Of a stretch of DNA of 64,000 nucleotides, positions 113 to 61,209 are shown piece by piece. This stretch comes from Clostridia bacterium (GTDB taxonomy: Bacteria; Bacillota; Clostridia; Christensenellales; UBA1242), in contig JBAYMN010000001.1 of NCBI GenBank assembly GCA_041663585.1, forward strand, positions 475 to 64,474, written 5' to 3'. The notes below the pieces were generated by a model. It saw only the letters and a program-made list of their open reading frames with translations, had not been told where the DNA came from and searched no databases. Made by a program: the position numbers and the translations under genes. Positions within the stretch are counted from its first letter, which is position 1. The number at the start of each line of letters is the position of its first letter.

Positions 113-2701
113 ATGCCTGAACAAACTTTATTACTAATAGATGGGAACAGCCTTATGTTTAGGGCGTTTTACGCACTACCGCCACTTTCAAATTCTAGGG
201 GCGAGTATGTAAACGCCATTTACGGGTTTACAAATATGCTTGTTAAAATGATCACAGAGCATAAGCCCACACATATAATAGTGGCATTTGATACCGCAAA
301 AAAGACATTTAGAAACGCATTATACCCTGAGTACAAAGCAACAAGAGGTCCAACGCCCACCGAATTAATTACGCAAATACAGCCATTAAAAAACCTATTA
401 AAAACAATGAAAATTGAAATTGAGCAACGTGAAGGTTTTGAGGGCGATGATATTATTGGCACTTTTTCTAAAAAGTTTAAACAAAAAACTATAATTTTAA
501 CCGCAGACCGTGACACTTTACAACTCATTGACGACAGTACAGAAGTTTGGCTTACAAAAAAGGGAATATCGGAACTAGAAAGGATTAATGAGGCAACACT
601 TAAAGAAAAATACTTTATGTTGCCCGCACAAGTTGTTGATTACAAAGCGTTACTGGGTGATGCTTCCGATAATATTCCGGGAGTTAAGGGAGTTGGCGAA
701 AAAACTGCATTATCATTAATTAGTGAATACGGCAGTTTAGACAACATATATAAAAATATAGAAAATATTAAGGGCGCTTTAAAGCAAAAATTAATAGAGC
801 AAAAAGATTCCGCTTATTTATCGCAAAACCTTGCTACAATTCGTACAGATTTAAATTTTGATTGTAATTTTGCAGATGCTGTGTTTGATTTTCCATTTTC
901 GGAAAGTGTAAAGGTGGCGTTTGAAAAATTAGAATTTAAAAACTTTTTAAAACGCGATGAATTATTTAAAGAGGGTGGCGAAAGTGCAACCATATTAAAA
1001 TCAAATACCGAAATTGTAGATTTAAAAAAAGCCACGCAAATAGAAAATTTAATTAGAGATATAAAATTACAAAAATTTTGTGCAATATATATTGATGACA
1101 GCGGATTTAATTTTGCATTAAATAAAGCCAAAAATTATGTGCTTTCTATAAAACAGGATTTACTTGCCGAAAGTGTAAGTTATCCCGAAACTATTGCACA
1201 GTTTAAAGATATTTTAGGGGATAGTAATGTTAAAAAAGTGGTTTTTGATAGCAAGGCTTTAAAACACAGATTAATTAAAGAAAATGTAGAATTGAACGGT
1301 GTGGTTTTTGATGTATCTATTGCATTATATTTAATTGATACAAAAATTAAAGCATGGTCAATTGATAATGTATGCAGTTACTACAATTTGCCTGTGCAAA
1401 ATCTTGCTGCCGAACTTTTGATTATTAGGGAAAACGCTGAGATTGAACTTAAAAAATATAATTTAAAAAAACTGTATTATGAAATTGAACTTCCGCTTGT
1501 AAATGTGTTATTTGATATGGAGCAAAGCGGTTTTAAAATTGATGTTAACAGACTAGATGAACTTTCCGCAAAATACAAAAGCGAGTTAGATGATTTAACT
1601 CAAATGATATACCATCAGGCTGGACTAGAATTTAATATAAATTCGCCTAAACAACTTGGAGAAGTTTTATTTGATAGGCTAAAACTTAATGCTTCACAAA
1701 AAGACCGTTCTACCGGGGTTGATGTGCTTGATAAACTATACGATAAACACCCAGTTATTCCGCTAATATTGCGTTATCGCAAAATTGCAAAACTTTTAAG
1801 CACATACATTGATGGTTTTAAAACTCTTATTGATCCAAAAACTAATATAATTCACACTATATTTAACCAAACGCTTACCACAACAGGCAGGCTTTCTAGT
1901 AGCGAACCAAATTTGCAAAATATTCCAGTACGCGATGATGAGGGAAGAATATTACGCGAAATGTTTATTCCGCGTGAAAAAAACAATTTATTAATTTGTG
2001 CTGACTATTCGCAAATAGAACTTAGGTTGCTGGCACACTACTCTGGTGATGAAGCGCTTATTCACGCATTTAAAACCGAACAAGATATTCATAGCATAAC
2101 CGCAGCAAAGGTTTTTAATGTTGATTTAAAAGATGTAACAAAAGAAATGCGAAGAGCCGCTAAAGCAGTAAACTTTGGCATAATTTACGGTATAAGCGAT
2201 TACGGACTTTCACAAAACATAGGAACATCTCGTAAATTTGCAAGTGAATACATTAAAAGATATTTTGAAACATATCCAAAAGTTAAAACCTTTATGGATT
2301 CTAGCGTAAATTCGGCAAAACAAAATGGCTACGTTACAACACTTATGGGCAGAATGCGTAAAATACCGGAAATAAATTCTTCAAATTTTAATATGCGACA
2401 ATTTGGTGAGCGTGCTGCTATGAATATGCCACTTCAAGGTACAGCATCAGACATAATAAAACTAGCAATGCTAAAAGTTTTTAAAGCAATACAATCTGAA
2501 AAATTAAAATCAAAATTAATACTACAAATCCACGATGAGTTAATTGTAGATGCACCAAAAGAGGAAGCACGCCGAATAATTGCACTATTAAAAGAAAATA
2601 TGGAAAATGTTTTAACGCTTAATGTTCCGCTAATTGTTGATGTGGACTGGGGTAAAAATTGGTGTGATACTGCCGATGCTGAATTATTAGATGATTTATA
2701 A
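113..2701 (+). CDS. polA: DNA polymerase I
   Basis: 862-aa ORF with AGGAG RBS. N-terminal 5'-3' exonuclease region (LLIDGNSLMFRAFYA). Family-A polymerase motifs ADYSQIELRLLAH, KAVNFGIIYG, QIHDELIVD. Confidence 0.95.
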   Translation: MPEQTLLLIDGNSLMFRAFYALPPLSNSRGEYVNAIYGFTNMLVKMITEHKPTHIIVAFDTAKKTFRNALYPEYKATRGPTPTELITQIQPLKNLLKTMKIEIEQREGFEGDDIIGTFSKKFKQKTIILTADRDTLQLIDDSTEVWLTKKGISELERINEATLKEKYFMLPAQVVDYKALLGDASDNIPGVKGVGEKTALSLISEYGSLDNIYKNIENIKGALKQKLIEQKDSAYLSQNLATIRTDLNFDCNFADAVFDFPFSESVKVAFEKLEFKNFLKRDELFKEGGESATILKSNTEIVDLKKATQIENLIRDIKLQKFCAIYIDDSGFNFALNKAKNYVLSIKQDLLAESVSYPETIAQFKDILGDSNVKKVVFDSKALKHRLIKENVELNGVVFDVSIALYLIDTKIKAWSIDNVCSYYNLPVQNLAAELLIIRENAEIELKKYNLKKLYYEIELPLVNVLFDMEQSGFKIDVNRLDELSAKYKSELDDLTQMIYHQAGLEFNINSPKQLGEVLFDRLKLNASQKDRSTGVDVLDKLYDKHPVIPLILRYRKIAKLLSTYIDGFKTLIDPKTNIIHTIFNQTLTTTGRLSSSEPNLQNIPVRDDEGRILREMFIPREKNNLLICADYSQIELRLLAHYSGDEALIHAFKTEQDIHSITAAKVFNVDLKDVTKEMRRAAKAVNFGIIYGISDYGLSQNIGTSRKFASEYIKRYFETYPKVKTFMDSSVNSAKQNGYVTTLMGRMRKIPEINSSNFNMRQFGERAAMNMPLQGTASDIIKLAMLKVFKAIQSEKLKSKLILQIHDELIVDAPKEEARRIIALLKENMENVLTLNVPLIVDVDWGKNWCDTADAELLDDL

Positions 2702-2755
2702 AATTTAAATTTTAATTTATAGTTTAAAAACTTGTTAAATTTCATAAAATATAGT

Positions 2756-3334
2756 ATGAAAAATACGAAATTTAGCAGGTTTTTATTTTATTTATTTTCT
2801 GCTTTGATGGCGTTTTCAATTTGTGCCATTTATATTTATGATGCCAAGTTTTATCCTATTGCTTATATAAAACAAATAGAAAAATACTCTACTGAATATG
2901 GTGCAGATGGTGCACTAATAACAAGTATTATAAATGCCGAAAGCGGATTTAACAGGTATTGTGTTTCATCTTCGGGGGCGCTTGGACTTATGCAAATGCT
3001 ACCTCGTACTGCCGAATGGGTGGCAAATCAGTTAAATGTGATAACTTTTAATACCGAAATGCTTTATAATGCCGATACAAATATTAAATTTGGGACTTTT
3101 TACTTTATGTATTTATATAATAAATTTAATTCTGTTAGCACTGCACTTGCTTGTTATAATGCGGGCGAGGGGCTTGTTGCAAATTGGCTTGATAGCGATT
3201 TATATTCTAGCGATGGAGTTAATATTAAAACCACGCCATATCCCGCCACTAATGCTTATTTAGAAAAAATAGAAAAAAATTTTAATGTTTATAAAACTAA
3301 ATATTACAGAATCTTAACAAGAATAATGAATTGA
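2756..3334 (+). CDS. membrane-anchored lytic transglycosylase (SLT domain)
   Basis: ORF 2732-3334; ATG at 2756 preferred over the TTG at 2732. N-terminal hydrophobic helix. SLT motifs AESGFN and GLMQM. Confidence 0.8.
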   Translation: MKNTKFSRFLFYLFSALMAFSICAIYIYDAKFYPIAYIKQIEKYSTEYGADGALITSIINAESGFNRYCVSSSGALGLMQMLPRTAEWVANQLNVITFNTEMLYNADTNIKFGTFYFMYLYNKFNSVSTALACYNAGEGLVANWLDSDLYSSDGVNIKTTPYPATNAYLEKIEKNFNVYKTKYYRILTRIMN

Positions 3335-3451
3335 ACTGTATAAGAAATTTTGTTACAAGTTAAATTTAAAATAAAGTTTTTGATTAATATATAAGACTTT
3401 CTAGTTTTGAACTTTTTATATTGTTTTAACTTTATAAGTAAAATAATTTAA

Positions 3452-3480
3452 TTGACAAACACTCTGTTTAATGGTAATCT
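3452..3480 (+). promoter_or_regulatory. putative sigma-A promoter of lysS
   Basis: TTGACA (3452-3457), 17-nt spacer, TAATCT (3475-3480), 28 nt upstream of the lysS start. Confidence 0.35.
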
Positions 3481-3507
3481 TATAAAAAACATAGAGGTAG
3501 GTTACTT

Positions 3508-4992
3508 ATGCGATACAGCGATAGTACTGAACAAGATATTTATAAAGAAACAGATATTCGCAAACAAAAAATAGAAACTTTAAAAAAACAAAACATAGTA
3601 GTATATGCCGAAAAATTTGAGCGTACACATAAACTTTGTGAAGCACAAAACTTAAATGAGGGCGATGTAACTGCTATTGCTGGCAGGGTAGTGTCCAAAC
3701 GCGTATTTGGCAAGTTTATGTTTATTATATTACAAGATATAGAAGGCAAAATGCAAGTTAGCCTTTCGGTAAACGAAATTGAATTAGAAAAATATGAATC
3801 CTTTAAAAATAATGTTGATATTGGCGACTTTGTTGGTGTTAATGGTGAAATTTATCGCACAAAAACCGGTGAGTTAACAGTACGAACAAACTCTTATGAA
3901 CTACTTAGCAAGGCCTTAAAACCAATGCCTGAAAAATTCCACGGATTAACGGATATGGAAGCGCGTTATAGACAGCGTTATTTAGATTTAATTTCTAACG
4001 ATACTGCACGCAAAGTGTTGTATGGCAGATTAAAGTTTATTTCATTAATTAGAAAATTTTTAAGTGAACATGGATTTTTGGAAGTTGAAACTCCAATTCT
4101 TCAAAGTGCGGTTTGTGGTGCAAGTGCAAAACCATTTATTACAAAGCACAATGCACTTAATATGGAAATGAATTTAAGAATTGCACCTGAAACATATTTA
4201 AAGCAGTTAATTGCAGGCGGATTTGACCGCGTATTTGAAGTTGCAAAGTGTTTTAGAAATGAGGGTATGGACCAAGCACATTTACAAGAATTTACACAAG
4301 TAGAATGGTATGCTAGTTACTGGAATTTTGAAGACAATATCAAATTCTTTACTGAGTTTTTAAGATATCTTGTAAAAGAAATGACTGGCAAACTAGAAAT
4401 AGAAAAAGAAGGCAAAGTATTTAGTCTTGTTAATGATTTTCCACGAATTAATTATACCGAAACTTTAAGTAAAATTTTAGGATTTAATGTAGTTGAACCT
4501 AATACAGTTGAAGAATTAAAAGCCCAAGTTTTAAAAACCGGTTTATTTAGTGAATACGATTTAAAAGGGCTTGTAACTATTGGGGCGGTTATAGACTTTA
4601 TGTATAAACGCAAGATTAGGCCAAATATTATTGAGCCAACAATTCTATTTAATTACCCTGCTTCACTTGTGCCACTAGCGCGTAGAAGTGATAGAAATCC
4701 AAAATTAATTGAAATGTTTCAGCTCTTAATTAATGGCGAAGAAATTTGTAAAGCGTATTCAGAATTAGTTGACCCGATTACTCAAAGGGAAACCTTAGAA
4801 GAACAAGCAAACGCAAAACTTGCCGGCGATGATGAGGCTATGGATCTTGATGAGGGGTTTTTGCAGGCTATGGAACACGGTATGCCACCAATTTCTGGAT
4901 TAGGATTTGGAATAGATCGCTTTATGTTAATGCTATTTGATCAGCCTTCTATTAGAGATGTTATATTCTTTCCGATTATGAAGGCGGAATAA
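3508..4992 (+). CDS. lysS: lysine--tRNA ligase (class II)
   Basis: 494 aa. OB-fold N-terminal domain and class II core (FRNEGMD, ELVDP, GLGFGIDR). GAGG RBS. Confidence 0.95.
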   Translation: MRYSDSTEQDIYKETDIRKQKIETLKKQNIVVYAEKFERTHKLCEAQNLNEGDVTAIAGRVVSKRVFGKFMFIILQDIEGKMQVSLSVNEIELEKYESFKNNVDIGDFVGVNGEIYRTKTGELTVRTNSYELLSKALKPMPEKFHGLTDMEARYRQRYLDLISNDTARKVLYGRLKFISLIRKFLSEHGFLEVETPILQSAVCGASAKPFITKHNALNMEMNLRIAPETYLKQLIAGGFDRVFEVAKCFRNEGMDQAHLQEFTQVEWYASYWNFEDNIKFFTEFLRYLVKEMTGKLEIEKEGKVFSLVNDFPRINYTETLSKILGFNVVEPNTVEELKAQVLKTGLFSEYDLKGLVTIGAVIDFMYKRKIRPNIIEPTILFNYPASLVPLARRSDRNPKLIEMFQLLINGEEICKAYSELVDPITQRETLEEQANAKLAGDDEAMDLDEGFLQAMEHGMPPISGLGFGIDRFMLMLFDQPSIRDVIFFPIMKAE

Positions 4993-7202: not shown

Positions 7203-7255
7203 TTTATATAATACTTTCTAAAAGTTGCAAGTTAAATAATAATTTGGTTTAGATA

Positions 7256-7316
7256 GGATACGCTAAGTAGTTTAAACGGTGCCACTTTCCGCCTATCCAT
7301 CAGGTAGGCGGAACAA
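7256..7316 (+). repeat. structured intergenic repeat: ACGCTAAGTAGTTTAAAC arm + GGTGCC + bulged hairpin TTCCGCCTA-T-CC-ATCA-GG-TAGGCGGAA
   Basis: Matches copies at 18940-19016 (reverse strand) and 44209-44373. The hairpin also recurs at 30928-30954 and 59030-59056. Confidence 0.75.
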
Positions 7317-8540
7317 TCACTCTTTTAGCGGAACAATATCAATCATCTCATCATCGATAAAATCGCCATCTAAAAGTATGGCGCGTTTTAATGTATCTTT
7401 GCCGTATTTATCTTGTAAAATATCTATACAACGATTTAAGTCATCTTTTTTTGTAGGTTTTTCTAATTCAAACATACTTATTTGTTCGCTGGAATCATCA
7501 GCAATTAAATTGATTGCTGTAATTGTAAGCGAGCGTATTGATTTATTAAAATTCCAACTTTTTTTTAATAAATCTAATGCGGTTTTTGCAATATCTAAAT
7601 CGGTATAAGTAGGAGATTTTAGTACAGTTTGGCGACTAAAACTGTCCATTTCTACATTTTTTATGGCTATTGCTACTCCTGTGCATTTTGTACTATTTAT
7701 TCTTAATCTTTCAGCAATTTGCTTACATAATCTATATACAACTGGTTTAGCATCAGAAAAATTTTGTATATCTTTTGGTGTGGTTGTTCCGTTACCCACA
7801 CTTTTAAATTTTGTTTCGGTGGCAAAACTTTGCACATTAAAATCATCTTCGCCACGTACCATATTAATCAAATCTTTTCCGTGCTTGCCTAAATAATAGG
7901 TAAGTAGTTTTTGATCGGCGTAATATAAATCTTTAATAGTGTTAATATTTAATTTTTTTAGTGTTTCGTTCGTATGTCTTCCTACCATAATAAGTGCTTG
8001 GGCCGGTAGTGGAAACATAATTTCACTAAAATTTTCTTTTGTAACGCAAGTTGTTGCATCGGGCTTTTTATAATCGCTACCGAGTTTTGCGTAAACCTTG
8101 GTAAACGACACGCCCACTGATACGGTAAGTTTTAATTCCCGTTTAATATCTTCTCGTATTTTATCGGCGATTTCTTTACCGCTACCAAATAGTTTTGTGC
8201 TTTGGGTAACATCAAGCCAGCATTCATCAGGTCCAAAACCTTCTACAAAATTGGTATAGCGGGAATAAATTTCCTTTGCTTTTTTTGAATATTGTTCATA
8301 AACTTCGTGATGAGGGGCTACACATATTAAATTTGGACATTTTTGTTTTGCTTGCCAAATTACTTCACCAGTCTGAATTCCTAGTTTTTTTGCCGTCATA
8401 TTTTTTGCAAGTACAATGCCGTGCCTATGCCTTGGGTTACCGCATACCGCCAGCGGATAATTTTTGATAGAAGGATTTAAAATACATTCTACCGAAGCGT
8501 AAAAGTTGTTCATATCGCAGTGCAAAATTACTTTTTCCAC
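7317..8540 (-). CDS. dinB: DNA polymerase IV (Y-family translesion polymerase)
   Basis: 407 aa. N-terminus ILHCDMNNFYASVE and other Y-family motifs. Confidence 0.9.
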   Translation of the reverse strand: MEKVILHCDMNNFYASVECILNPSIKNYPLAVCGNPRHRHGIVLAKNMTAKKLGIQTGEVIWQAKQKCPNLICVAPHHEVYEQYSKKAKEIYSRYTNFVEGFGPDECWLDVTQSTKLFGSGKEIADKIREDIKRELKLTVSVGVSFTKVYAKLGSDYKKPDATTCVTKENFSEIMFPLPAQALIMVGRHTNETLKKLNINTIKDLYYADQKLLTYYLGKHGKDLINMVRGEDDFNVQSFATETKFKSVGNGTTTPKDIQNFSDAKPVVYRLCKQIAERLRINSTKCTGVAIAIKNVEMDSFSRQTVLKSPTYTDLDIAKTALDLLKKSWNFNKSIRSLTITAINLIADDSSEQISMFELEKPTKKDDLNRCIDILQDKYGKDTLKRAILLDGDFIDDEMIDIVPLKE

Positions 8541-8766: not shown

Positions 8767-9213
8767 ATGGATAGCATAAGTAATTTAATAGAAAACTTTA
8801 TAATATCCACGATAGGCGAAGAAAAATCGCTAGATTTATCACGCAATGAATTAGGCAAATATTTTGGTTGTGCTCCAAGTCAAATAAATTATGTAATTAG
8901 CACACGCTTTACCGTAGAACGCGGGTTTATAACCGAAAGTAAACGCGGTGGTGGGGGATTTATTAAAATTACAAAATTGTCTGATAGAAAAGACAGTTTT
9001 ATATCATCTCTTATTAATAATGTTATAGGAGAACAAATAGATTATAACAGGGCAGTACAAATATTAATTGGGCTTAAAGAACGACAATATGTTACGGAGC
9101 GAGAATTAGAAATTATAAAAATTGCAATTCACCCTAAATCGCTTCAATCGCCATTAGATATAGCCGAACGACAGCGTGCGGTAATATTAAAAAATTTACT
9201 CATATATTTTTAA
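8767..9213 (+). CDS. ctsR: transcriptional repressor CtsR
   Basis: 148 aa. Conserved SKRGGGGFIKI glycine-rich loop. First gene of the ctsR-mcsA-mcsB-clpC operon. Confidence 0.9.
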   Translation: MDSISNLIENFIISTIGEEKSLDLSRNELGKYFGCAPSQINYVISTRFTVERGFITESKRGGGGFIKITKLSDRKDSFISSLINNVIGEQIDYNRAVQILIGLKERQYVTERELEIIKIAIHPKSLQSPLDIAERQRAVILKNLLIYF

Positions 9214-9231
9214 AAGGAGTTTTTTAGAATT

Positions 9232-9732
9232 ATGAAATGTCAAAAATGCAAAACAAATGAAGCAACATATCATACTTCGATAACTATAAACGGTCAAACT
9301 ACCGAAGAGCATCTGTGTGCGGAATGTGCGATTGCAACTGGTAAAATGCCTCATTTTAAAACTATTGATGTAGGCGAATTTTTTGATAGTTATGTAGATA
9401 ATTATAAAAAAGCAAAAAGTATTCCTAAGGCGATTATTTGTCCGGGGTGCGGAATGTTAAGTACAGATTTTTTATCCACTGGCTTTGTCGGTTGTTCTAT
9501 GTGCTATAAGGCATTTGAAAATCTGTTACAACCTATAATTAAAAATGTACAGGGGCGAACAAAGCACATAGGTAAACTTGCAGATAAACAATTTAATTTA
9601 AACAGTTCAAATTCTAAGCAAGAAGAAATTGATCGCTTAAACAGTTTACTAAAACGGGCGGTGGCAGAAGAACGTTATGAAGATGCCGCTGAATATAAAC
9701 GTAAAATTAAAGAAATTAATGACAAAAATTAA
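9232..9732 (+). CDS. mcsA: McsA (UvrB/UvrC-motif protein, activator of McsB)
   Basis: 166 aa. CxxC zinc-finger pairs and a C-terminal UVR motif (EERYEDAAEYKRKI). Operon position. Confidence 0.85.
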   Translation: MKCQKCKTNEATYHTSITINGQTTEEHLCAECAIATGKMPHFKTIDVGEFFDSYVDNYKKAKSIPKAIICPGCGMLSTDFLSTGFVGCSMCYKAFENLLQPIIKNVQGRTKHIGKLADKQFNLNSSNSKQEEIDRLNSLLKRAVAEERYEDAAEYKRKIKEINDKN

Positions 9733-9760
9733 TTTAAATTAATACAGTTTGGAGTAAAAT

Positions 9761-10753
9761 ATGGATAATATTGTAGTATCTTCTAGAATACGATTAGCGC
9801 GAAATTTGCACGGCATACCATATCCGCACAAGTTAAAAGATGAACGAGCGTATGCGGTAGTTATGAAAAGTGTGGCTGATGTTTTGTCACCATTTAATTA
9901 CAAAGTTTATGCAACAAACACATTATCTGATATTGATTGTGATGTACTTCTAGAAAAACATTTAATTAGCAAAGACCTAATTTTAAATAAAGAATATGGC
10001 GGAGTAATTATTAGCGAAGATGAAACCGTATCAATTATGATTAACGAAGAAGACCATATAAGGGCGCAATGTTTGTTTAGTGGATTTAACTTACAAAAAG
10101 CATACGAAATTGTAAATAAAATAGATGATATTTTGCTTTCTAAATTAAGTATTTCATATGATTCGGAGTTAGGGTTTTTAACTGCTTGTCCAACTAACAT
10201 AGGCACTGGAATGCGCGCCTCAGTTATGATGTTTTTGCCCGCTATTACAATGAATGGTACAGTTAACAATGTTATTAATGCATTATCCAAACTGGGTATT
10301 ACTATTAGAGGGGTATATGGTGAGGGCAGTTCGGCCGATGGATACATGTATCAAGTATCAAATCAAATATCGCTAGGACTTACTGAACAAGAAATTATAA
10401 AAAACGTATCAAACGCTGTGCTAAAAATTTGTGAAATTGAAGAAAATGCAAGGCGAGAATTATTAAAACACCAAACAGATGATATAATAGATTCTGCTTG
10501 CCGTGCTTATGGAATTTTAACTAATGCATATAAGCTAGACAGCAACGAATTTATGAAACTTATGGCGAAATTGAAATTTGGGGTATGTTTGGGCTTTATA
10601 AAATTAAGTAATGTAGATATTTTAGATAAATTAATAATATCGGCACAGCCCGCACATTTAATGCAATTAAAAGGTGAATTAATACAGCCAAATGAACGCG
10701 ATATATTTAGGGCGGAATATGTTGCCGGCATGCTAAAAAATGCAAAAATATAA
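9761..10753 (+). CDS. mcsB: protein arginine kinase McsB
   Basis: 330 aa. ATP:guanido phosphotransferase motif CPTNIGTGMRAS. Operon position. Confidence 0.9.
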   Translation: MDNIVVSSRIRLARNLHGIPYPHKLKDERAYAVVMKSVADVLSPFNYKVYATNTLSDIDCDVLLEKHLISKDLILNKEYGGVIISEDETVSIMINEEDHIRAQCLFSGFNLQKAYEIVNKIDDILLSKLSISYDSELGFLTACPTNIGTGMRASVMMFLPAITMNGTVNNVINALSKLGITIRGVYGEGSSADGYMYQVSNQISLGLTEQEIIKNVSNAVLKICEIEENARRELLKHQTDDIIDSACRAYGILTNAYKLDSNEFMKLMAKLKFGVCLGFIKLSNVDILDKLIISAQPAHLMQLKGELIQPNERDIFRAEYVAGMLKNAKI

Positions 10754-10780
10754 TGACTAAATTATTCAAGGAGAAATATT

Positions 10781-13285
10781 ATGCAATTTAATTTTGAAAG
10801 TTCTATGAACTTAACAGAAAATGTAAAAAATACTGTAAAAAATGCAGCGACATTAGTACTTAATTTAAGGTATGAGCAAATAGGTTCCGAACATTTATTG
10901 TATGGATTAAGCAAAACTGATTGCGTGGCTTCAAAAATGCTTTCTGAATATGGAGTAACAAGTGAGGCTATGAAATCTGTATTTGAAAAAAATGATAGAA
11001 CTCCTGATTTTGATGCAGTTATTCAAGTTGCATTTACACCGCGTGCAAAAGAAATTTTTTTACGAGCACAACAACTTGCAATGCAGTTTAACCATAATTT
11101 TATTGGCACTGAGCATTTATTGCTTAGTATATTGCTTGATCCCGATGCATTAGCCGATACAATACTTGTTCGTGCATTTAAAGTAAATATTGCGGAATTA
11201 AAACAAAGACTTTTAGGAGTACTGCGTTCTCAACAGGGCGAATCACAAATGTTTAGTAGAGAAAATATAATGTCTAATGGTATGGGCGACACTACAAATT
11301 ATAACGGAAATACACAGGCAAATGGCTCTTCACTTCCCGAAAGTTTACTCGCTATGGGCTCGGACCTTACTCTTAAAGCAAAACAGCATAAAATTGACCC
11401 TATAATTGGTAGACAAAAAGAAATTGAAAGAATTATTGAAATTCTTTGCAGAAAAACTAAAAATAATCCTGTTCTTATTGGTGAGGCGGGTGTTGGTAAG
11501 TCGGCAATTATAGAAGGGTTAGCACGTGAAATTGTAGCGGGTAATGTTCCAGATTTATTGAAAAACAAAATCATATATTCGTTAGATATTGGTAGTTTGG
11601 TTGCTGGAACAAAATACCGCGGTTCATTAGAAGAACGCTTAAAAAATGCTATTGAAACCATAATAGGGCAAAAAAATATAATTGTATTTATTGATGAAAT
11701 ACACACTTTGGCTTCTTCTGGCGCTAAGGAGGGAGAAGTAAATCCTTCCGATATGTTAAAACCTTATTTAGCAAGAGGTGAATTACAAACCGTTGGAGCA
11801 ACAACTACCGATGAATATCGTAAATTTATTGAGAAAGATAAAGCACTAGAACGTAGATTTCAACCCATTATGGTTAATCCGCCAAGCGTTGAAGAAACAA
11901 TCTTAATACTAAAAGGATTGCGTGATAGTTATGAGGCGTTCCATAAAGTTAAAATAACCGATGAGGCAATAGAAACTGCGGCTACACTATCTGACCGCTA
12001 TATTATGGATCGTAGCCTACCTGATAAGGCGATTGATTTAATTGATGAGGCAAGTAGTAGGGCGAAAGTAAACAATAATTTTACGCCTCCTGAATTAAAA
12101 ACAAAAGAAGAAGAAATTAAACAATTAGAAATTAACAAAAAAGAAGCATTAATGCAAGAAAACTTTGAAAAGGCGGCCGCTATCCGCGACCAAATTAAAA
12201 AAGCAGAAGAGCAAGCAGATAAAATTAAAAATGATTACAAAACCGATAAACAAAAAATACAAGTGCAAATTGGTGCCGAAGAAGTTGCAAGAGTAGTTTC
12301 TAACTGGACTAAAATACCAGTTACCAAAATAACTGAAAGCGAAAAACAAAGATTGGTGCATTTAGAAGATGATTTGCATAAGCGCGTAATTGGGCAAGAT
12401 GAAGCAGTAGAAGCAGTTGCAAAAGCAATTAGGCGAGCAAGGGCGGGGTTAAAAGACCCATCTCGTCCCATTGGTTCATTTCTATTTTTAGGACAAACCG
12501 GCGTAGGTAAAACGGAATTGTCTAAGACACTTGCTGAATCATTATTTGATGATGAAAATTCTATAATACGAATTGATATGTCCGAATATATGGAAAGTCA
12601 TTCTGTATCAAAACTTATTGGTTCGCCTCCGGGTTACATTGGCTATGATGAGGGCGGACAACTTACTGAACAAGTTCGCAGAAAGCCGTATTCAGTAGTT
12701 CTTTTTGATGAAATTGAAAAAGCGCACGCTGATGTTTATAATGCATTATTGCAAATACTTGATGATGGTAGACTTACGGATTCACAAGGAAGAATTGTAA
12801 ATTTTAAAAATACCGTTATTATTATGACATCTAATATTGGAGTAAATGAAATTCCAAAAAATAAAGCGGGCTTAGGTTTTAAAGATAGTGCTACTTTAAA
12901 AGAACAAACTTTTGAAGATATTAAACGAATACTCACCGATGCTGTAAAAAAACATTTTAAACCCGAATTTATAAACCGAATAGATGTTATTACAGTATTT
13001 AAGCCACTCACCGAAGATAACTTAGCCAGAATTGCCGGTCTTATGATTAAAAAAGTTGAAAGCAGGTTAAAAGCACAAAAAGTTGAATTAAAATTAACCG
13101 AAAAAGCACTAAAATATTTAGTTGCAAAAGGTTATGATGCAGATTATGGCGCAAGACCATTAAGGCGTGTTATAGAACGTGAAATTGAAGACACACTTGC
13201 AGAATATTTATTAGGTGGAAAAATTGCAGAAGGCTCATCTGTACTTATTGATGCTGATGACAAAAATATTATAATTAATATCTAA
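10781..13285 (+). CDS. clpC: ATP-dependent Clp protease ATP-binding subunit ClpC
   Basis: 834 aa. Clp_N repeats, two AAA+ modules (GEAGVGKS, GQTGVGKT) and a UVR linker. Confidence 0.93.
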   Translation: MQFNFESSMNLTENVKNTVKNAATLVLNLRYEQIGSEHLLYGLSKTDCVASKMLSEYGVTSEAMKSVFEKNDRTPDFDAVIQVAFTPRAKEIFLRAQQLAMQFNHNFIGTEHLLLSILLDPDALADTILVRAFKVNIAELKQRLLGVLRSQQGESQMFSRENIMSNGMGDTTNYNGNTQANGSSLPESLLAMGSDLTLKAKQHKIDPIIGRQKEIERIIEILCRKTKNNPVLIGEAGVGKSAIIEGLAREIVAGNVPDLLKNKIIYSLDIGSLVAGTKYRGSLEERLKNAIETIIGQKNIIVFIDEIHTLASSGAKEGEVNPSDMLKPYLARGELQTVGATTTDEYRKFIEKDKALERRFQPIMVNPPSVEETILILKGLRDSYEAFHKVKITDEAIETAATLSDRYIMDRSLPDKAIDLIDEASSRAKVNNNFTPPELKTKEEEIKQLEINKKEALMQENFEKAAAIRDQIKKAEEQADKIKNDYKTDKQKIQVQIGAEEVARVVSNWTKIPVTKITESEKQRLVHLEDDLHKRVIGQDEAVEAVAKAIRRARAGLKDPSRPIGSFLFLGQTGVGKTELSKTLAESLFDDENSIIRIDMSEYMESHSVSKLIGSPPGYIGYDEGGQLTEQVRRKPYSVVLFDEIEKAHADVYNALLQILDDGRLTDSQGRIVNFKNTVIIMTSNIGVNEIPKNKAGLGFKDSATLKEQTFEDIKRILTDAVKKHFKPEFINRIDVITVFKPLTEDNLARIAGLMIKKVESRLKAQKVELKLTEKALKYLVAKGYDADYGARPLRRVIEREIEDTLAEYLLGGKIAEGSSVLIDADDKNIIINI

Positions 13286-13357: not shown

Positions 13358-13897
13358 ATGAAAATTGAATTAAGTTCAAAAAATTACGATATTGGAAAAA
13401 GATTAAAAGATATTATTGAAACAAAAGTACAAAAATTGGATAGATATTTTGATTCAGATGCAGTTGCAAAGGTAATTTGTAAATTAGAGAACAACATATA
13501 CAAACTTGAAGTTACAATTTTAAGTAAAGGCTTATTTTATAGAGCAGAAGCAACAAGCAATGAAAATATGTACGAAAATATAGATATGGCTCTTCCAAAA
13601 GTTGAAAGACAAATTGTGCGAAATGCCGATAAACTAAAAACAAAATTGCGTGCGGGTGCATTTAAGGATAAGGAACTTGTTTATAATACCGAAATGCCAG
13701 TTCGTAAGGAAGTAAAAGTTGTTAAAACCAAGAGTTTTGAACTTATTCCGCTTACGGTTGATGATGCGATTTTAAATATGGAAGAATTAGGTCATGACTT
13801 TTATATTTTTCTCAGTAAAGAAACTGGAAAAATTAATGTTATGTACAAAAGAAAAGATGGCAATTTAGGTCTTATAGAAGTAATAAATTCAAAATAA
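13358..13897 (+). CDS. hpf: ribosome hibernation promoting factor (long form)
   Basis: 179 aa. N-terminal S30AE/YfiA fold plus the C-terminal dimerisation domain (DFYIFLSKETGKINVMYKRKDGNLGLIE). Confidence 0.9.
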   Translation: MKIELSSKNYDIGKRLKDIIETKVQKLDRYFDSDAVAKVICKLENNIYKLEVTILSKGLFYRAEATSNENMYENIDMALPKVERQIVRNADKLKTKLRAGAFKDKELVYNTEMPVRKEVKVVKTKSFELIPLTVDDAILNMEELGHDFYIFLSKETGKINVMYKRKDGNLGLIEVINSK

Positions 13898-17307: not shown

Positions 17308-18444
17308 TCAATTTTGACTGCTTATTTCTTTTATTGCGCTAACCAGTTTTTTTGCTTGTCGTAGCGTATTATTAATATCTATGCTAATTCTAACTGTGCC
17401 AGTTTCCAGCGTTTTTAAATGAGTATGAATAAGCGGAGCACAATGAATTCCGGGGCGAGTACATATTTTATATTTATAATTTAAAATATCACTTACATCG
17501 GAAGAATATTTATCTTTTATATTAAATGATATTACGCCTGAGCGACTATTTTTTGGAGTGTACACTGTAACATTTTTAATTAAATATAATTCATTTAAAA
17601 TATAGGCACTTAATTTATGAATTTTATTATTTATTTTATTGAAATGTGATTTTGTCCATTTCAAACCCGCACCGAGTGCCAATATTGCAGGCGTACCGAT
17701 TGTTCCGCTTTCAAATGCTTCGGGGGGCGTTATTGGTTGATAAACGCTTTCACTCATAGTGCCTGTTCCGCCAAATCTTATCGGTTTTAATGCTATGGTT
17801 GGACTTATAACTAATCCACCTATTCCTTGTATACCGTGTAGTCCTTTATGCCCCGCAAATGCAAGCATACTTATATTTTGTTTTTGCATATCTATATTTA
17901 AATGGCCTGCGGATTGTGCGGAATCTACAAGCAACATTATATGCTTTGATTTACACAAATCACTAATTTTTTGAATATCTTGTGTAACACCTGTTACATT
18001 GGAAGTGTGATTTATGCACACTAAATAAGTTTTATCCGTAATATGCTTTGCAATTTCCTCCGGTTCAATTTTTCCTTGTGAATTTGGGTTAATTATTGTT
18101 ATATCAATTTTACCTTGTTTTTGTAAATCATATAGCGGTCTGAGAACGGAATTGTGGTTAGTAGAATCTGCTATTACATTACCGCCAGTTACTGCTGTTC
18201 CTAATATTGCAAGGTTTAATGCATCAGTACAGTTATAACAAAAAATTATATTCTGGTTTGTATCTGCATTAAAATAATCTTTTAAACTTTCCCGAACGCT
18301 TTGCACCTTTAATGCTGTTTTTATACTCGCCGTGTGTCCGCTTCTGCCTGGGTTAGCGTAATATTTAAATGTTGATAATATAAGCGAAAGCATTACGGAG
18401 AGCGGTTTATATTTAGCAGTAGCGGCATTATCAAAATAAATCAT
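17308..18444 (-). CDS. class V aminotransferase / cysteine desulfurase family protein
   Basis: 378 aa. PLP-lysine context FAGHKGLHG and the C-terminal active-site Cys loop RPGIHCAP. Confidence 0.8.
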   Translation of the reverse strand: MIYFDNAATAKYKPLSVMLSLILSTFKYYANPGRSGHTASIKTALKVQSVRESLKDYFNADTNQNIIFCYNCTDALNLAILGTAVTGGNVIADSTNHNSVLRPLYDLQKQGKIDITIINPNSQGKIEPEEIAKHITDKTYLVCINHTSNVTGVTQDIQKISDLCKSKHIMLLVDSAQSAGHLNIDMQKQNISMLAFAGHKGLHGIQGIGGLVISPTIALKPIRFGGTGTMSESVYQPITPPEAFESGTIGTPAILALGAGLKWTKSHFNKINNKIHKLSAYILNELYLIKNVTVYTPKNSRSGVISFNIKDKYSSDVSDILNYKYKICTRPGIHCAPLIHTHLKTLETGTVRISIDINNTLRQAKKLVSAIKEISSQN

Positions 18445-18898: not shown

Positions 18899-18939
18899 CT
18901 CAATAGGGGAACAAAACACTTATTCTTGTACGACTGCAT

Positions 18940-19016
18940 ATTTATTCCGCCTACCTAACGGATAGGCGGAACGAGGCACCGTTAAAAAAATTGAGTTTAA
19001 ACTACTGAGCGTGTTC
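18940..19016 (-). repeat. structured intergenic repeat, reverse-orientation copy
   Basis: The reverse complement reads GAACACGCTCAGTAGTTTAAAC-TCAATTTTTTTAAC-GGTGCC-TCG-TTCCGCCTA-T-CC-GTTA-GG-TAGGCGGAA. Collinear with 7256-7316 and 44209-44373. Confidence 0.75.
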
Positions 19017-19065
19017 TATTTGAACAAAGTTTTGATATTATTTTTTGGAAAAGCAGAAAATAAAA

Positions 19066-21977: not shown

Positions 21978-22265
21978 ATGTTAATAAGTAAAGAAAGAGC
22001 AAAATATGCAGGTCTTGCAAATAAAATTGATGTAGATATTTTAATAGGTAAAGAAGGCTTAAATGACAATGTGCTTAAACAAATTAGTCAGTATTTAGAA
22101 GCACACGAATTAGCTAAAATTAAAATGCAAAAAAGCGTAGATTATACTAATCGCCAGCTTTGCGATTTGTTAGTAGAAAAATTACAAGCCGAACCAGTGC
22201 TACTTGTTGGTAATAAAGTTATTTTATATAAAAAATCTAGTAGAACAGACATAATTCATATATAA
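21978..22265 (+). CDS. yhbY: YhbY-like CRM-domain RNA-binding protein
   Basis: 95 aa with the IGKEGLNDNVLKQI...ELAKIK pattern. Conserved position after obg. Confidence 0.8.
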   Translation: MLISKERAKYAGLANKIDVDILIGKEGLNDNVLKQISQYLEAHELAKIKMQKSVDYTNRQLCDLLVEKLQAEPVLLVGNKVILYKKSSRTDIIHI

Positions 22266-22269
22266 ATTA

Positions 22270-22335
22270 TTCCGCCTAGCGAAAGCATTGGCGGGGTAAA
22301 ACAATTTTACATTGTACATTTTACATTCTACATTT
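22270..22335 (+). repeat. degenerate TTCCGCC...GGCGG hairpin followed by a 4 x NTACATT heptad array
   Basis: 22297-22335 reads AAAACAATT-TTACATT-GTACATT-TTACATT-CTACATT-T. A near-identical array lies at 29098-29132. Confidence 0.7.
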
Positions 22336-22371
22336 AAAAAACAGTTCACTTTTTAAGTGAACTGTTTTTTA
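22336..22371. terminator. bidirectional intrinsic terminator (yhbY / 22374-23090 gene)
   Basis: AAAAAACAGTTCAC-TTTTTAA-GTGAACTGTTTTTT, with an A-run and a T-run flanking a 9-bp stem. Confidence 0.75.
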
Positions 22372-23200: not shown

Positions 23201-24259
23201 TTAAGTTGCCAATTTGGAATATTTTAAAATTTGTTCATATATTTTTTTAGTTCCATCGGTATTTGGTTCTTTGCTCATATTTTTAATTAATTCAATGCGT
23301 GATGAAAATAATTTTAATATTGCTACTTTTAAATTTTGTGGTGACATATTTTCCTCAAATAAAATGTTTGCAATTCTCCTTTCATTAAAATTTTTTGCGT
23401 TTAAAATTTGGTCACCACGAGACGCCATTTTTGAAAGCGGAATAAGTAACATGGGCTTTCGAAGTGCTAAAAATTCGTGTATTGCGGTCGCACCAGCACG
23501 ACTTACAATAACATCTGCGGTGGCAAAATAATCGCTAATTTTATCAGTAAATTCAATTTGGATATAATAGTTTTGTTTGAGCGTTTCATCAATATTGCCT
23601 TTGCCAACAATATGAATAACATTATATTTTTTTAATAAATCGGGAAGTATTGCGCGCACATTTTTATTTATATTTACCGAACCCAAACTTCCGCCCATAA
23701 CTAAAATTGTAGATTTTTCTGGTGATAGTTTATACTCATTAATTATGTTGTGTTTATTACCGTTGTATAATTCGTGGCGTATGGGAGCACCTGTAAATAC
23801 ACCATTATTAAGTGTATGTGCTGTGCTTTCAAAATTTGTACACATTACTTTACACTTATGTGCCATAAGTTTGTTGGCTAGCCCCATAGTTATATCAGAC
23901 TCATGGCTGACTACTGGGATTTTTTTTGATGCAAGTACAACAGGAAGCGCAACATATCCGCCTTTACTGAATATAACATCAGGCTTTATTTTTTTTAATA
24001 ATTTGTTTGCTTGTAAAATTCCCTTTGCCAATGCAAAAGGTATTTTTAAATTATTAAGCGTAAACTTGCGTTCTAATTTGCATGTTTCAATAGATAAAAA
24101 GGTTATATTTTTATAACTTGATACCATTCGCTCTTCCATGCTATTTGCAGAGCCTATATAATAGATTTTATCAAAATCTTTTTCAATATAATGCAGTAAT
24201 GCTATGTGGGGTATAATATGTCCGGCAGTTCCGCCACCTGTTAATACTATTGTGCTCAT
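23201..24259 (-). CDS. murG: undecaprenyldiphospho-muramoylpentapeptide beta-N-acetylglucosaminyltransferase
   Basis: 352 aa. LTGGGTAGHI N-terminal motif and GT28 C-terminal domain (SRAGATAIHE). Confidence 0.9.
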   Translation of the reverse strand: MSTIVLTGGGTAGHIIPHIALLHYIEKDFDKIYYIGSANSMEERMVSSYKNITFLSIETCKLERKFTLNNLKIPFALAKGILQANKLLKKIKPDVIFSKGGYVALPVVLASKKIPVVSHESDITMGLANKLMAHKCKVMCTNFESTAHTLNNGVFTGAPIRHELYNGNKHNIINEYKLSPEKSTILVMGGSLGSVNINKNVRAILPDLLKKYNVIHIVGKGNIDETLKQNYYIQIEFTDKISDYFATADVIVSRAGATAIHEFLALRKPMLLIPLSKMASRGDQILNAKNFNERRIANILFEENMSPQNLKVAILKLFSSRIELIKNMSKEPNTDGTKKIYEQILKYSKLAT

Positions 24260-30815: not shown

Positions 30816-30957
30816 AAAGGGAAACCACTTTAAAAGGGAAACCACGAGCCGATAAGTAGCGGACACGCAAATTTAAAATTTGCTAACCGCTGGACTCGTG
30901 GCTTCCCTCTTTAACCGCGGAATTATATTCCGCTTGTCCGTTAGGCAAGCGGAACAA
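30816..30957 (+). repeat. composite repeat: rod-hairpin module X (core 30842-30901) + GCGGAAT-TAT-ATTCCGC palindrome + bulged hairpin (30928-30954)
   Basis: The X core matches 58647-58706 with 2 substitutions and 1 indel. The hairpin matches the TTCCGC...GCGGAA family. AAAAGGGAAACCAC occurs twice in tandem (30816-30829, 30832-30845). Confidence 0.8.
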
Positions 30958-31029
30958 AATATAACATATATATTTTAATATTTGCAAATAAATATTATAA
31001 ATTTAAGTTGGATATAATATATTTCAGTA

Positions 31030-44177: not shown

Positions 44178-44208
44178 AGTGTACTATGTTGCTCACTTTT
44201 ATAATTTA

Positions 44209-44373
44209 GAACACGCAAAGTAGTTTAAATATAAAGATTTTTAAATGATTTAGCCCTAAACAGGTTCCGACGCGTATCAATACGCTAGGTGGTTCTGCTT
44301 GGGGCTAAGGCGTTAAAAAGATTATATTTAAACGGCGCCTAGTTCCGCTTTTCCGGTAGGAAAGCGGAATAAA
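44209..44373 (+). repeat. structured intergenic repeat carrying a ~97-nt nested insert
   Basis: GAACACGCAAAGTAGTTTAAA-[44230-44326 insert]-TTTAAACGGCGCC-TAG-TTCCGCTTT-T-CC-GGTA-GG-AAAGCGGAA. TTTAAA is present on both sides of the insert. The hairpin overlaps the folD 3' end. Confidence 0.75.
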
Positions 44374-45205
44374 TTTCTGCCGCTTCTACGGCTTGCGAAA
44401 TTAGCGATGAAATAGTCATAGGTCCTACACCACCAGGAACGGGAGTATAAGCTGAGCAAATGCTAAGAGCGTGATTATCAAGTTCTATATCACCAACATT
44501 ATTTTGGTTATAACCGCAGTCTATCAAAATCACATTAGGTTTTAACCATGCTGACTTAATTAAATTTGCTTTTCCGACTGCCGCAACTAATATATCTGCT
44601 TGTCTTACATATTGCTCTAAATTAATTGTTTTACGATGGCAAATTGTTACAGTTGCATTCTCTTGTAATAAAAGCATTGCAGTGGGTTTGCCTAATATTG
44701 CACTTCTGCCTACAATTACAGCGTGCTTGCCTTCAATTATAATATTATAGTGTTTCAAAAGTGTTATAATTCCTAACGGGGTGGCACATTTAAATGCAGG
44801 GTAACCGTTTGTCATATTTCCAAAAGAAGTTGCACTTACGCCATCAACATCTTTATTAAGTGCAATCTCGTTAAAACAGAGTTGCTCATCTATATGAAGT
44901 GGCGTTGGGTGTTGTAATAGTATGCCACATATTTTTGAATCTGCATTCAATTCGCGTATTTTATTAACCAATTTTTCGGTTGTAGTGTTTTTTGATAAAT
45001 TTACTGTTACAGAATTTAAACCCACCCTTGCACACGCCTTTGATTTCATTTTTACATAAGTTTTAGAAGCAGGGTCTTCGCCTACTATAATTGCCGCAAG
45101 GACGGGAGTATAGTTATATTTTTGTTTTAAAACATTAACCCGTTTTAAAAGTTGTAATTCAATTTCTGATGCTAGTTTTTTTCCATCTAATCTTATTGCT
45201 TCCAT
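44339..45205 (-). CDS. folD: bifunctional methylenetetrahydrofolate dehydrogenase / methenyltetrahydrofolate cyclohydrolase
   Basis: 288 aa. Typical FolD blocks (YVKMKSKAC, VVGRSAILGKP, TPVPGGVGPMT). The last 12 codons and the stop lie within the repeat hairpin. Confidence 0.93.
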   Translation of the reverse strand: MEAIRLDGKKLASEIELQLLKRVNVLKQKYNYTPVLAAIIVGEDPASKTYVKMKSKACARVGLNSVTVNLSKNTTTEKLVNKIRELNADSKICGILLQHPTPLHIDEQLCFNEIALNKDVDGVSATSFGNMTNGYPAFKCATPLGIITLLKHYNIIIEGKHAVIVGRSAILGKPTAMLLLQENATVTICHRKTINLEQYVRQADILVAAVGKANLIKSAWLKPNVILIDCGYNQNNVGDIELDNHALSICSAYTPVPGGVGPMTISSLISQAVEAAEIYSAFLPEKRN

Positions 45206-58638: not shown

Positions 58639-58718
58639 AAAGGACACCACGAGCCGATAAGTAGCGGGCACGCAAATTTAAAAATTTGCTAACCGCTGGG
58701 CTCGTGTGTTTCCCTTTT
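58639..58718 (+). repeat. rod-hairpin module X, second copy (core 58647-58706)
   Basis: CCACGAGCCGATAAGTAGCGGGCACGCAAATTTAAAAATTTGCTAACCGCTGGGCTCGTG; compare 30842-30901. Confidence 0.8.
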
Positions 58719-58772
58719 AATCGCGTTTTTGCTAAAAACGCTAATCCCTTCCTTCATAGGATATCACTCAAA

Positions 58773-58812
58773 ATAAGCAAGTCAGGCAAAGCCTAAGACT
58801 TGCTTATTTTTT
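58773..58812 (+). terminator. strong terminator-like hairpin downstream of the DAC-like gene
   Basis: ATAAGCAAGTCAGGC-AAA-GCCT(AA)GACTTGCTTAT followed by TTTTT. Confidence 0.6.
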
Positions 58813-58937
58813 CGTGGGGGATTTTTGAGCCATACTGCACATTTTAAGCATACTGATGTAAACATACAGCATATTCTTGCTGTACTTTCGAATTGAAAAG
58901 TAAAGTAGCATAAAATTAAAGATTTTTGGAATATTTG
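58781..58937 (+). repeat. 157-nt direct repeat, copy 1
   Basis: 154 of 157 positions are identical to 59062-59218. Confidence 0.9.
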
Positions 58938-58941
58938 TTTT

Positions 58942-58988
58942 AAAACAGGTTGCCGATTGCACCAGTGGTTGCATCGGCGTTCTGTTTT
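58942..58988 (+). repeat. symmetric hairpin AAAACAG-GTT-GCCGATTGCA-loop-TGCATCGGC-GTT-CTGTTTT
   Basis: Has the same outer frame (AAACAG-GTT ... GTT-CTG(C/T)TT) as 44258-44300, with a different inner stem. Confidence 0.65.
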
Positions 58989-59029
58989 AAGACAAAGAGC
59001 CTAAAAGGTTAATTTTAAGCGGCTCTAAT

Positions 59030-59056
59030 TTCCGCTTGACCGTTAGGCAAGCGGAA
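59030..59056 (+). repeat. bulged hairpin of the TTCCGC...GCGGAA family
   Basis: TTCCGCTTG-A-CC-GTTA-GG-CAAGCGGAA. Confidence 0.8.
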
Positions 59057-59061
59057 CAAAG

Positions 59062-59218
59062 GTCAGGCAAAGCCTAAGACTTACTTATTTTTTCGTGGGG
59101 GATTTTTGAGCCATACTGCACATTTTAAGCATACTGATGTAAACATACAGCATATTCTTGATGTACTTTCGAATTGAAAAGTAAAGTAGCATAAAATTAA
59201 AGATTTTTAGAATATTTG
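59062..59218 (+). repeat. 157-nt direct repeat, copy 2
   Basis: Has 3 substitutions relative to 58781-58937 and is offset by 281 nt. Ends 12 nt before the sigF stop codon. Confidence 0.9.
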
Positions 59219-59230
59219 ATTTAAAAAGAA

Positions 59231-60425: not shown

Positions 60426-60435
60426 AGTTTTTCTC

Positions 60436-60987: not shown

Positions 60988-61062
60988 CGGGGTGTAGCGC
61001 AGTGGTAGCGCACACGGTTTGGGACCGTGGGGTCGCAAGTTCAAACCTTGTCACCCCGACCA
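60988..61062 (+). tRNA. tRNA-Pro (anticodon UGG)
   Basis: Hand-folded cloverleaf. Anticodon loop TTTGGGA. CCA encoded. Confidence 0.9.
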
Positions 61063-61199: not shown

Positions 61200-61209
61200 C
61201 CTAATTTTT

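Follow-up and report, generated by a model that had tools for sequence, protein, structure and literature searches.

A bulged hairpin is the 3' module of a modular intergenic repeat in uncultured Clostridia

Introduction

Most of what is known about repetitive extragenic palindromic (REP) repeats and their domesticated transposases comes from the Proteobacteria, with a few other phyla besides. Intergenic repeats of the Firmicutes that are modular and structured, with RNA-like folds, include the BOX elements of Streptococcus pneumoniae and the bcr repeats of the Bacillus cereus group; no dedicated transposase is known for BOX. For the IS200/IS605 elements, an orientation bias linked to replication is expected. 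We have analysed a stretch of 64,000 nucleotides of a Clostridia bacterium (contig JBAYMN010000001.1), called here the window, in which a first, sequence-only reading had described five copies of a 27-nt bulged stem-loop, termed hp3 in the following. Our analysis shows that this bulged hairpin forms the 3' end of a much longer non-coding repeat, which is lineage-specific, built of modules and about 170 nt in length. A survey of REPs lists those with the GTAG/CGTC tags in several phyla, none of them in the Firmicutes (PMC3733652), and the Group 1 REP-associated tyrosine transposases (RAYTs) are 'also found in the Clostridia' (PMC5581495). Therefore, a RAYT-type mobiliser is possible for the elements described here.

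Results

The hairpin is part of a larger element

The hp3 core CCGC-N4-CC-N4-GG-N3-GCGG was matched exactly five times in the window (7289+, 18947-, 30930+, 44345+ and 59032+) and not at all in 100 dinucleotide-preserving shuffles of it. When up to three mismatches were allowed, no sixth hp3 was found in the window. The five full 27-mers (Table 1) all have the TT/AA flanks and are all followed by CAA or TAA, and the inner stem triplets CTA:TAG, TTG:CAA and TTT:AAA differ between the copies and remain complementary. The number, places and architecture of the hairpins were therefore as the sequence-only reading had described them. The predicted stability of hp3 is -14.5 to -19 kcal/mol.

The hairpin repeat is real, but it is not the unit that had been proposed. 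The DNA upstream of each hp3 is also related between the copies, so that the repeat reaches about 140 nt to the 5' side of the hairpin, and this upstream sequence folds strongly, with z-scores down to -7. The whole element opens with a 5' module ending in AAGTAG. The long-range helix P1 comes next, then a helix of UUUUU and AAAAA, which is conserved, and a long hairpin in which a G.U/U.U/U.G ('GUU/GUU') motif is conserved; the short box GCGGYG... leads over to hp3. The two helices and the hairpin with the GUU/GUU motif form a rod of about 135 nt. In subfamilies A-C the rod has the AAGTAG tag at its 5' foot, and the tag was also found within a different long hairpin, here called type B; it is missing from the copies of two other genomes, RGIG7175 (CAAGCC) and L068 (CCAG), which are introduced below. 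The 3' boundary is sharp, as the homology between copies at different loci stops 0-6 nt past hp3, whereas the 5' boundary is ragged and may include further modules. Of the five copies in the window, two have the full length, two have lost an internal part and the remaining one is fused to the type-B hairpin. The hairpins had been placed just after a stop codon. This applies to the larger element, which begins soon after the stop, but not to hp3 itself, which lies 85-392 nt away from it.

Table 1. Copies and modules of the repeat in the window, with neighbouring signals
Feature	Position	Strand	hp3	Remarks
Copy 1, short (internally deleted) form	7247..7316	+	7287-7313	5' module GTTTAGATAGGATACGCTAAGTAGTTTAAAC (7247-7277), box GGTGCCACT, hp3, tail CAA; model match 7254-7319, 48.8 bits
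Solitary hp3 half-site GCGGAACAA	7328..7336	+		in the last dinB codons (opposite strand)
Copy 2, short form	18939..19018	-	18945-18971	model 56.1 bits
Marginal, possibly degenerate copy (CCCCGCC...TAGGCGGAATAA)	22264..22355	-		17 bits, E=0.07; follows a canonical terminator; left out of the family count
Type-B long hairpin, contains GATAAGTAG	30830..30914	+		directly 3' of the stop of an SSB-domain gene; fold -36 kcal/mol
Copy 3, chimeric	30917..30960	+	30928-30954	half-site GCGGAATTA (30917-30925), hp3, tail CAA; joined to the type-B hairpin in place of the rod; model match 30843-30960, 43.4 bits
Copy 4, full length, subfamily A	44207..44375	+	44343-44369	153.9 bits sense vs 23.3 antisense; fold z -4.9
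Second type-B hairpin	58641..58720	+		directly 3' of the stop of a 455-aa gene
Canonical intrinsic terminator, stem and T-run	58772..58812	+		lies before copy 5; module X starts with its 3' half
Module X, first copy, 165 nt	58781..58945	+		includes, from copy 5, the AAGTAG tag and the 5' strand of P1
Copy 5, full length, subfamily B	58892..59062	+	59030-59056	150 bits sense vs 27.2 antisense; z -7.0
Module X, second copy	59062..59226	+		opens with a terminator hairpin and T-run (59062-59093), 6 nt past hp3; a further 5' module without rod, weak model match 59173-59292, 20.7 bits

The fold of the whole element is conserved by covariation

A seed alignment was made from 17 non-redundant full copies of four subfamilies and analysed with RNAalifold. 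Compensatory changes were seen at 29 of the 42 pairs of the consensus fold. In this alignment 96.6% of the positions concerned were paired; the value fell to 74.7% in shuffles and to 38-55% after sliding the partners. For covariation, a score of 0.58 stood against 0.18, and none of 500 shuffles reached the real score. The covariance model built from the seed alignment was then run on the window and recovered exactly the five copies, each on the strand that had been given for it. The full copies scored 150-154 bits in the sense and 23-27 bits in the antisense direction. For 27 model matches in three lineages including L068, 10 of which were outside the seed, 96.2% pairing was observed, with compensatory changes at 31 of the 42 pairs, and the G.U and U.G pairs were kept in 26 of the 27 copies.

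For hp3 alone, 11 distinct versions were collected, and double-sided changes were found at 5 of its 11 pairs, compared with 0-2 in slid controls. The 100% pairing of this hp3-only set is partly circular, since only fully paired matches had been selected for it; in the unselected model alignment the hp3 helices were paired to 98.9-100%. Selection on the hairpin, as suggested from the five copies of the window, is borne out by these numbers, which no shuffled or slid control approached. The double-sided changes, together with the shuffled and slid controls, argue that selection maintains the fold of the whole element beyond hp3 alone, a conclusion that we regard as well supported by the alignments.

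Modules are exchanged between strains and sites

The window was compared with the contig JALOBO010000007.1 (L001) of a metagenome-assembled genome (MAG) of a sister strain. The two are 99.8% identical except for the gap between a heptaprenyl-synthase-like gene and dinB. At this site the window has the short form, copy 1, with a deletion that falls between two AGTTTAAAC repeats, whereas L001 has a full element, whose hp3 differs (CCGTTCA/TGAACGG), and in addition a gene for a protein of 290 aa. The hp3 region differs by about 30% between the strains and the flanks by 0.2%, so the module was replaced as a whole and not mutated; three compensatory pairs are among the differences. As had been noted, GCGGAACAA occurs twice in the window at the dinB site, at 7308-7316 and 7328-7336, and the second occurrence is inside the dinB open reading frame (ORF; 7317-8540, minus strand, with the tail ...IVPLKE*). 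This half-site is the right edge of the strain-variable segment, and the alleles of the window and of L001 re-converge at CTTTTAGCGGAACAAT. We considered the AGTTTAAAC direct repeat as a target-site duplication and rejected it: it looks like a direct repeat only because it is palindromic, it is part of helix P1, its neighbours covary, and it is absent from subfamily B.

The extra protein of L001 (11404-12276, minus strand, opposite the window gap 7203-7316) is membrane-anchored and has no Pfam match, and the full element follows immediately after its gene. A homologue of this protein abuts an hp3 in locus L098 (6717-7685).

At the sigF site, the window has two copies of module X that form a direct repeat with 98% identity and 281-nt spacing and flank copy 5. 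The strain L094 has a single module X at this site and no element core, which may be due to a recombination between the flanking X modules or to an assembler that skipped the loop. A duplication of X as a local event was ruled out by an X-core-X composite in the same MAG, an 85% paralogue at L123:8292. Because the composite recurs elsewhere in the same MAG, X is a module of the family.

The modules are found in many combinations. Rods that are about 90% identical to each other bear four different hp3 sequences. The type-B modules of about 85 nt, of which the two in the window are 93% identical, adjoin hp3 in either orientation; in L107, L108 and L112 they come just after hp3 and are oriented opposite to it. 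In L109 a chimeric junction is located at TTCCGC. A full copy about 450 nt beyond the left edge of the window (L001 20040-20208, minus strand) has its hp3 inverted relative to the rod (ACGCCTACCTAACGGGTAGGCGT), and the contigs of two other assemblies end at this copy. More generally, contigs of other assemblies break inside or beside copies. L103 and L113 share a module right after hp3, ACTCATTTGCGRCAGCAAATGGCAYTCTAAAAATGAA, a small hairpin, and the homology between the two runs for about 190 nt. None of the metagenome loci was syntenic with the window.

The elements also reach into genes. Frequently, hp3 lies 1-7 nt from a stop codon. The hp3 of copy 4 is read antisense by folD (44339-45205, minus strand) and makes up its last 10 residues, YSAFLPEKRN*, which indicates that the repeat rewrote the C-terminus of a housekeeping enzyme.

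Distribution and density

One genome per species was scanned with the hp3 pattern. Among the 78 loci found, almost all were single chance matches in GC-rich genomes, and the true matches were in the buffalo-cecum MAG 'Clostridia bacterium RGIG7175' and in a Hadza human-gut Clostridia MAG (L068). RGIG7175 has 8 identical hp3 copies on 7 contigs, several of them at contig ends. The metagenome scan gave 23 matches, which were sorted by context into 15 genuine ones, mostly from one metagenome, and 8 chance matches. At least one of the genuine loci, L108, belongs to the species of the window, since the ATPase protein that it encodes was also found on a second contig from the same MAG and JGI sample. 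The scan of viral contigs with the hairpin pattern gave 6 matches, all by chance in GC-rich coding DNA, and BLAST of one full copy against plasmid and phage collections gave none. In Rfam 15 no copy was matched at the gathering threshold, and two full copies were also unmatched in the permissive mode. As far as the pattern scans show, the family is apparently confined to a few uncultured Clostridia lineages, at least two besides that of the window, and was apparently not annotated before.

Across the loci examined there are more than 40 hp3 copies, nearly all of them intergenic. In the species of the window, the density is roughly 1 copy per 6-13 kb, and we estimate about 200 copies per genome. 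The 64-kb window has 5 copies, and 5 are clustered in 4.7 kb of L123 from the same MAG. L066, from RGIG7175, has at least 4 copies in 1.5 kb in both orientations, and L068 has 4-5 copies in 8 kb, two of which flank the RNase P RNA gene.

Some surroundings of the copies are of interest in their own right. In L068, the RNase P RNA gene (2677-3077, minus strand) with the element on both sides lies at 2154-3661, within a 4-kb stretch without a convincing ORF. In L066, elements beside secA enclose two small paralogous genes at 325-666 and 639-977, which encode 113 and 112 aa without a Pfam match. In L113 (1153-1598), a promoter close to the consensus (TTGACT-17-TAATAT) and the pheS T-box leader come right after an element, and copies are therefore also present in 5' regulatory intergenic space.

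Further landmarks of the window are a S-adenosylmethionine (SAM, S-box) riboswitch at 37906-37992, an array of six tRNA genes at 60988-61743, the ctsR-mcsA-mcsB-clpC operon at 8767-13285 and spoIIAA-spoIIAB-sigF at 59231-60744. The riboswitch, the tRNA array and the ctsR and spoIIA-sigF operons place the organism among the spore-forming Firmicutes.

Orientation of the copies

All five copies of the window point in the same direction as their upstream gene, as had been observed before. This co-orientation does not hold across the family. With crude ORF calls, about 10 copies had the same orientation as the adjacent upstream gene and 7 the opposite one. When the local majority gene direction was used for about 37 copies, 16 were oriented with it and 20 against it. 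With respect to the local GC skew, 17 copies were on the G-rich and 20 on the C-rich strand. Since the orientation in the family is unbiased, the five of five in the window are a sampling effect. The unbiased orientation argues against a role that is bound to the upstream transcript and also against a replication-coupled single-strand transposition of the IS200/IS605 type. The suggestion that the hairpins stabilise 3' untranslated regions (UTRs) is likewise weakened, because co-orientation fails as a general rule.

Discussion

A probable mosaic repeat at the DNA level

Among the roles that the sequence-only reading had considered, one like that of REPs and the bacterial interspersed mosaic elements (BIMEs) fits best. 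We consider it probable, with some reserve, that the family is a mosaic repeat at the DNA level that resembles REP/BIME, BOX or the hairpin-forming REP doublets known as REPINs. It would be non-autonomous DNA that is copied from one intergenic site to another, is lost again and has its parts reshuffled, and its sites would include the very 3' ends of genes. The fold of one particular strand would be kept, presumably since the single-stranded folded form is what an enzyme recognises, and an effect on mRNA 3' ends would probably be secondary. The random orientation and the mosaic turnover favour single-stranded DNA over RNA as the selected form, and we infer that the spread is mediated by an enzyme.

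Several observations weigh against such a DNA repeat. When 191 ORFs from independent element-bearing loci were compared all against all, no recurrent transposase-like family was found, and tblastn with IS200 TnpA and the E. coli RAYT gave nothing in the element-bearing loci among the 945 kb examined. The sole recurrent neighbour with a possible nuclease domain, an AAA_14/DUF4143 ATPase, is not linked to elements in other taxa. The flanks of the copies show no target-site duplication. An assembler that skipped the repeat loop might have produced the 'empty' sigF allele as an artefact. Copy 5 is located between two canonical terminators, like an independent small-RNA gene, and the strand-specific conservation of the G.U/U.U/U.G motif and of the bulge also fits a functional RNA. 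Finally, the loci cover a small part of any genome, and most of them were chosen for containing hp3.

Functional RNAs as a possible alternative

The copies could be a family of functional RNAs, such as 3'-UTR elements, structures that block RNase III or exonucleases, or independent small RNAs, with the fold selected at the RNA level. The very strong covariation speaks for this, as do the conserved single-stranded boxes and G.U pairs, which form on one strand only. Several copies are in the usual position of a terminator, between a stop codon and the next promoter, and the co-orientation in the window and the two terminators around copy 5 point in the same direction. However, the orientation in the family is unbiased with respect to the neighbouring genes, and consensus scans found no promoter around two copies. 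The estimated 200 copies per genome, the inverted and tandem clusters, the module swaps, the insertion into coding tails and the contig breaks are typical of repeats and not of RNA genes. We regard functional RNAs as an unlikely explanation, albeit one to be taken seriously.

A strict REP/RAYT or IS200/IS605 system as a possible alternative

The second alternative, which we hold to be unlikely to the same degree, is that hp3 or the GTAG-tagged rod is bound and cut by a Y1 (HUH) transposase that is encoded once elsewhere in the genome; as a variant, the element would be a remnant of a palindrome-associated transposable element (PATE) or of a TnpB omega-RNA. A bulged, strand-specific hairpin at the sharp end of the element is in line with such a system. 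The type-B hairpin and, at its 5' foot, the rod of subfamilies A-C have AAGTAG and with it GTAG, the REP tag that RAYTs cleave, and complementary stem changes between subfamilies are found in REPs as well (PMC3733652). Group 1 RAYTs have been reported in Clostridia (PMC5581495). In the loci examined, however, neither a Y1 transposase nor TnpB was found near any copy, and the orientation bias linked to replication is absent (17 vs 20). Rfam showed no match of the omega-RNA kind. A membership in the REP/RAYT system cannot be claimed, because hp3 has neither GTAG nor CGTC, the GTAG of the rod is missing in RGIG7175 and L068 and thus not universal, and a RAYT was not found.

The neighbourhood of the copies was inspected in the same loci. 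There was no RAYT flanked by repeats in the element-bearing DNA examined, no tnpA-like ORF and no recurrent large ORF upstream of the copies. The gene of the AAA_14 + DUF4143 ATPase is bracketed by inverted elements in L108 (5593-6858) and L123 (4595-5854), both from the species of the window, and adjoins a solo hp3 in L074 (3296-4588) of RGIG7175. We rejected this ATPase as the mobiliser: it has more than 8000 close homologues across the Clostridia, and two sampled homologue loci were without elements. A transposon between two hp3 copies in L074 was also considered and discarded, as the gene there encodes a HExxH secreted protease.

A smaller chance is given to two possibilities of a new kind. 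Either the family would be structure-defined, strand-specific mobile or recombining DNA of Clostridia that is independent of RAYT and IS200, for example with an attC-like hp3 that shuffles modules or small gene cassettes such as the 290-aa gene, or the 200 or so copies would be a new class of structured RNAs with a common trans-acting partner.

Improbable readings: the arm word, folded recombination sites and terminators

The arm of hp3 contains a word that is over-represented in the window. GCGGAA was observed 60 times with 18 expected, GCGGAAYWA 20 times with 1.8 expected, and AAGCGGAA is the top 8-mer (22 observed, 2.9 expected). Sites of the arm word outside of the hairpins are, for example, 1755-1763(-), 4984-4992(+), 13743-13751(-), 17700-17708(-), 23437-23445(+) and 62329-62337(-). 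The word is present on both strands without a strand skew, and because of this a Chi-like or KOPS-like polar word was rejected. We regard it as improbable that hp3 is just an inverted pair of a genome-favoured word [AG]GCGGAA, be it uptake-like, Chi-like or the site of a host protein; the inverted DUS/USS pairs found at gene ends would be its counterpart. In favour of it, the word is still 3-4 fold enriched when the elements are masked; all four sets of sequences with elements showed this, whereas the control loci did not, and within genes it is enriched on both strands in the frames that use rare codons (TT-CCG-C, T-TCC-GC). The excess outside the elements, 3-6 fold over the word variants, is modest, far below that of true uptake sequences, and part of it in the sense frame may come from the S/G-G-K codons of Walker-A motifs. 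Moreover, a favoured word leaves the 140-nt rod, the bulge and the covarying inner stem unexplained.

Marginally less probable still is a use of hp3 by a tyrosine recombinase as a folded single-strand recombination site, either a miniature attC-like site or one like the Xer/dif modules, by which the exchange of modules and cassettes would be accounted for. The conserved stem base with the covarying inner stem and the extrahelical base would suit such a site, and so would the half-sites at the boundaries of exchange, the order of gene and element in L001 and the homologue of the 290-aa protein that abuts hp3 in L098. In the loci examined, however, integrases in the vicinity of copies and cassette arrays were both absent, the stem base does not have the R''/R' consensus of attC, and most copies follow ordinary housekeeping genes.

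That the hairpins are ordinary intrinsic terminators, for which their stability at gene ends would speak, is very improbable, since none of the five is directly followed by a U-tract, as had been reported (copy 5 has a separate canonical terminator 6 nt further on, at 59062-59093, and another one upstream), the hp3 tails read AAYAA, a terminator scan of 44100-44450 found no intrinsic terminator, the arm sequence is conserved, and roughly every second copy runs antisense to the gene beside it.

Comparison with known systems

With an abundant, covarying and modular repeat in uncultured gut and digester Clostridia, REP biology would be extended to a new lineage. The repeat, with 31 of 42 pairs covarying, is a clean case for asking what maintains such folds. 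Such repeats break metagenome assemblies, create strain variation at gene ends and rewrite C-terminal codons, as in folD and dinB. They could serve as markers for strain typing, and the covariance model is directly usable to annotate the family.

Like the attC sites of integrons, hp3 appears to be defined by its fold more than by its sequence: the base of the stem is conserved, the inner stem varies with its pairing kept, and polarity comes from an extrahelical base. It is shorter, with 27 nt compared to 57-141 nt, its copies are dispersed, and neither integrase nor cassette array is found in the loci examined. The stem base is TTCCGC/GCGGAA and not the R''/R' sequence RYYYAAC...GTTRRRY, and GTTAGGC occurs only apically. 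The ends of IS200/IS605 elements, PATEs and TnpB omega-RNAs resemble our element in that a sharp end carries a bulged subterminal hairpin, specific to one strand, with structured sequence just upstream of it. In contrast to them, the element has no TnpA or TnpB nearby, no matching hairpin at its left end, no replication-linked orientation bias and no Rfam match. The copies also lack the layout of a miniature inverted-repeat transposable element moved by a DDE transposase, as the 3' end is hp3, the inverted repeat of P1 is internal and the flanks are free of a duplication.

REPINs, which are mobilised by RAYTs, are likewise long, hairpin-forming non-autonomous units that keep their pairing by compensatory changes and persist as a population within a genome (PMC3116915). 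Different from REPINs, the rod is not made of two inverted hp3 units, its arms being unrelated to hp3; it has the conserved asymmetric GUU/GUU motif, and hp3 is located outside, 3' of the rod. With its 27 nt, its imperfect palindrome and its many copies mainly at gene 3' ends, hp3 itself falls into the size class of the REPs. REPs and BIMEs are short imperfect palindromes in high copy number that are mostly found downstream of genes or between convergent genes, and they have complementary-stem subfamilies, G.T pairs, mosaic clusters in two orientations and occasional copies within genes or at gene tails (PMC3733652), all of which resemble our family. Unlike them, hp3 is flanked by CTAG, CACT or TAAT without GTAG or CGTC, it is usually fused to the structured rod of 135 nt, and no RAYT was found in the loci examined. 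From BOX and bcr, the repeat differs by its set of modules (tag, rod, bulged hairpin, type-B hairpin and X) and by its host lineage; by description it is like them a modular, structured and intergenic repeat of the Firmicutes.

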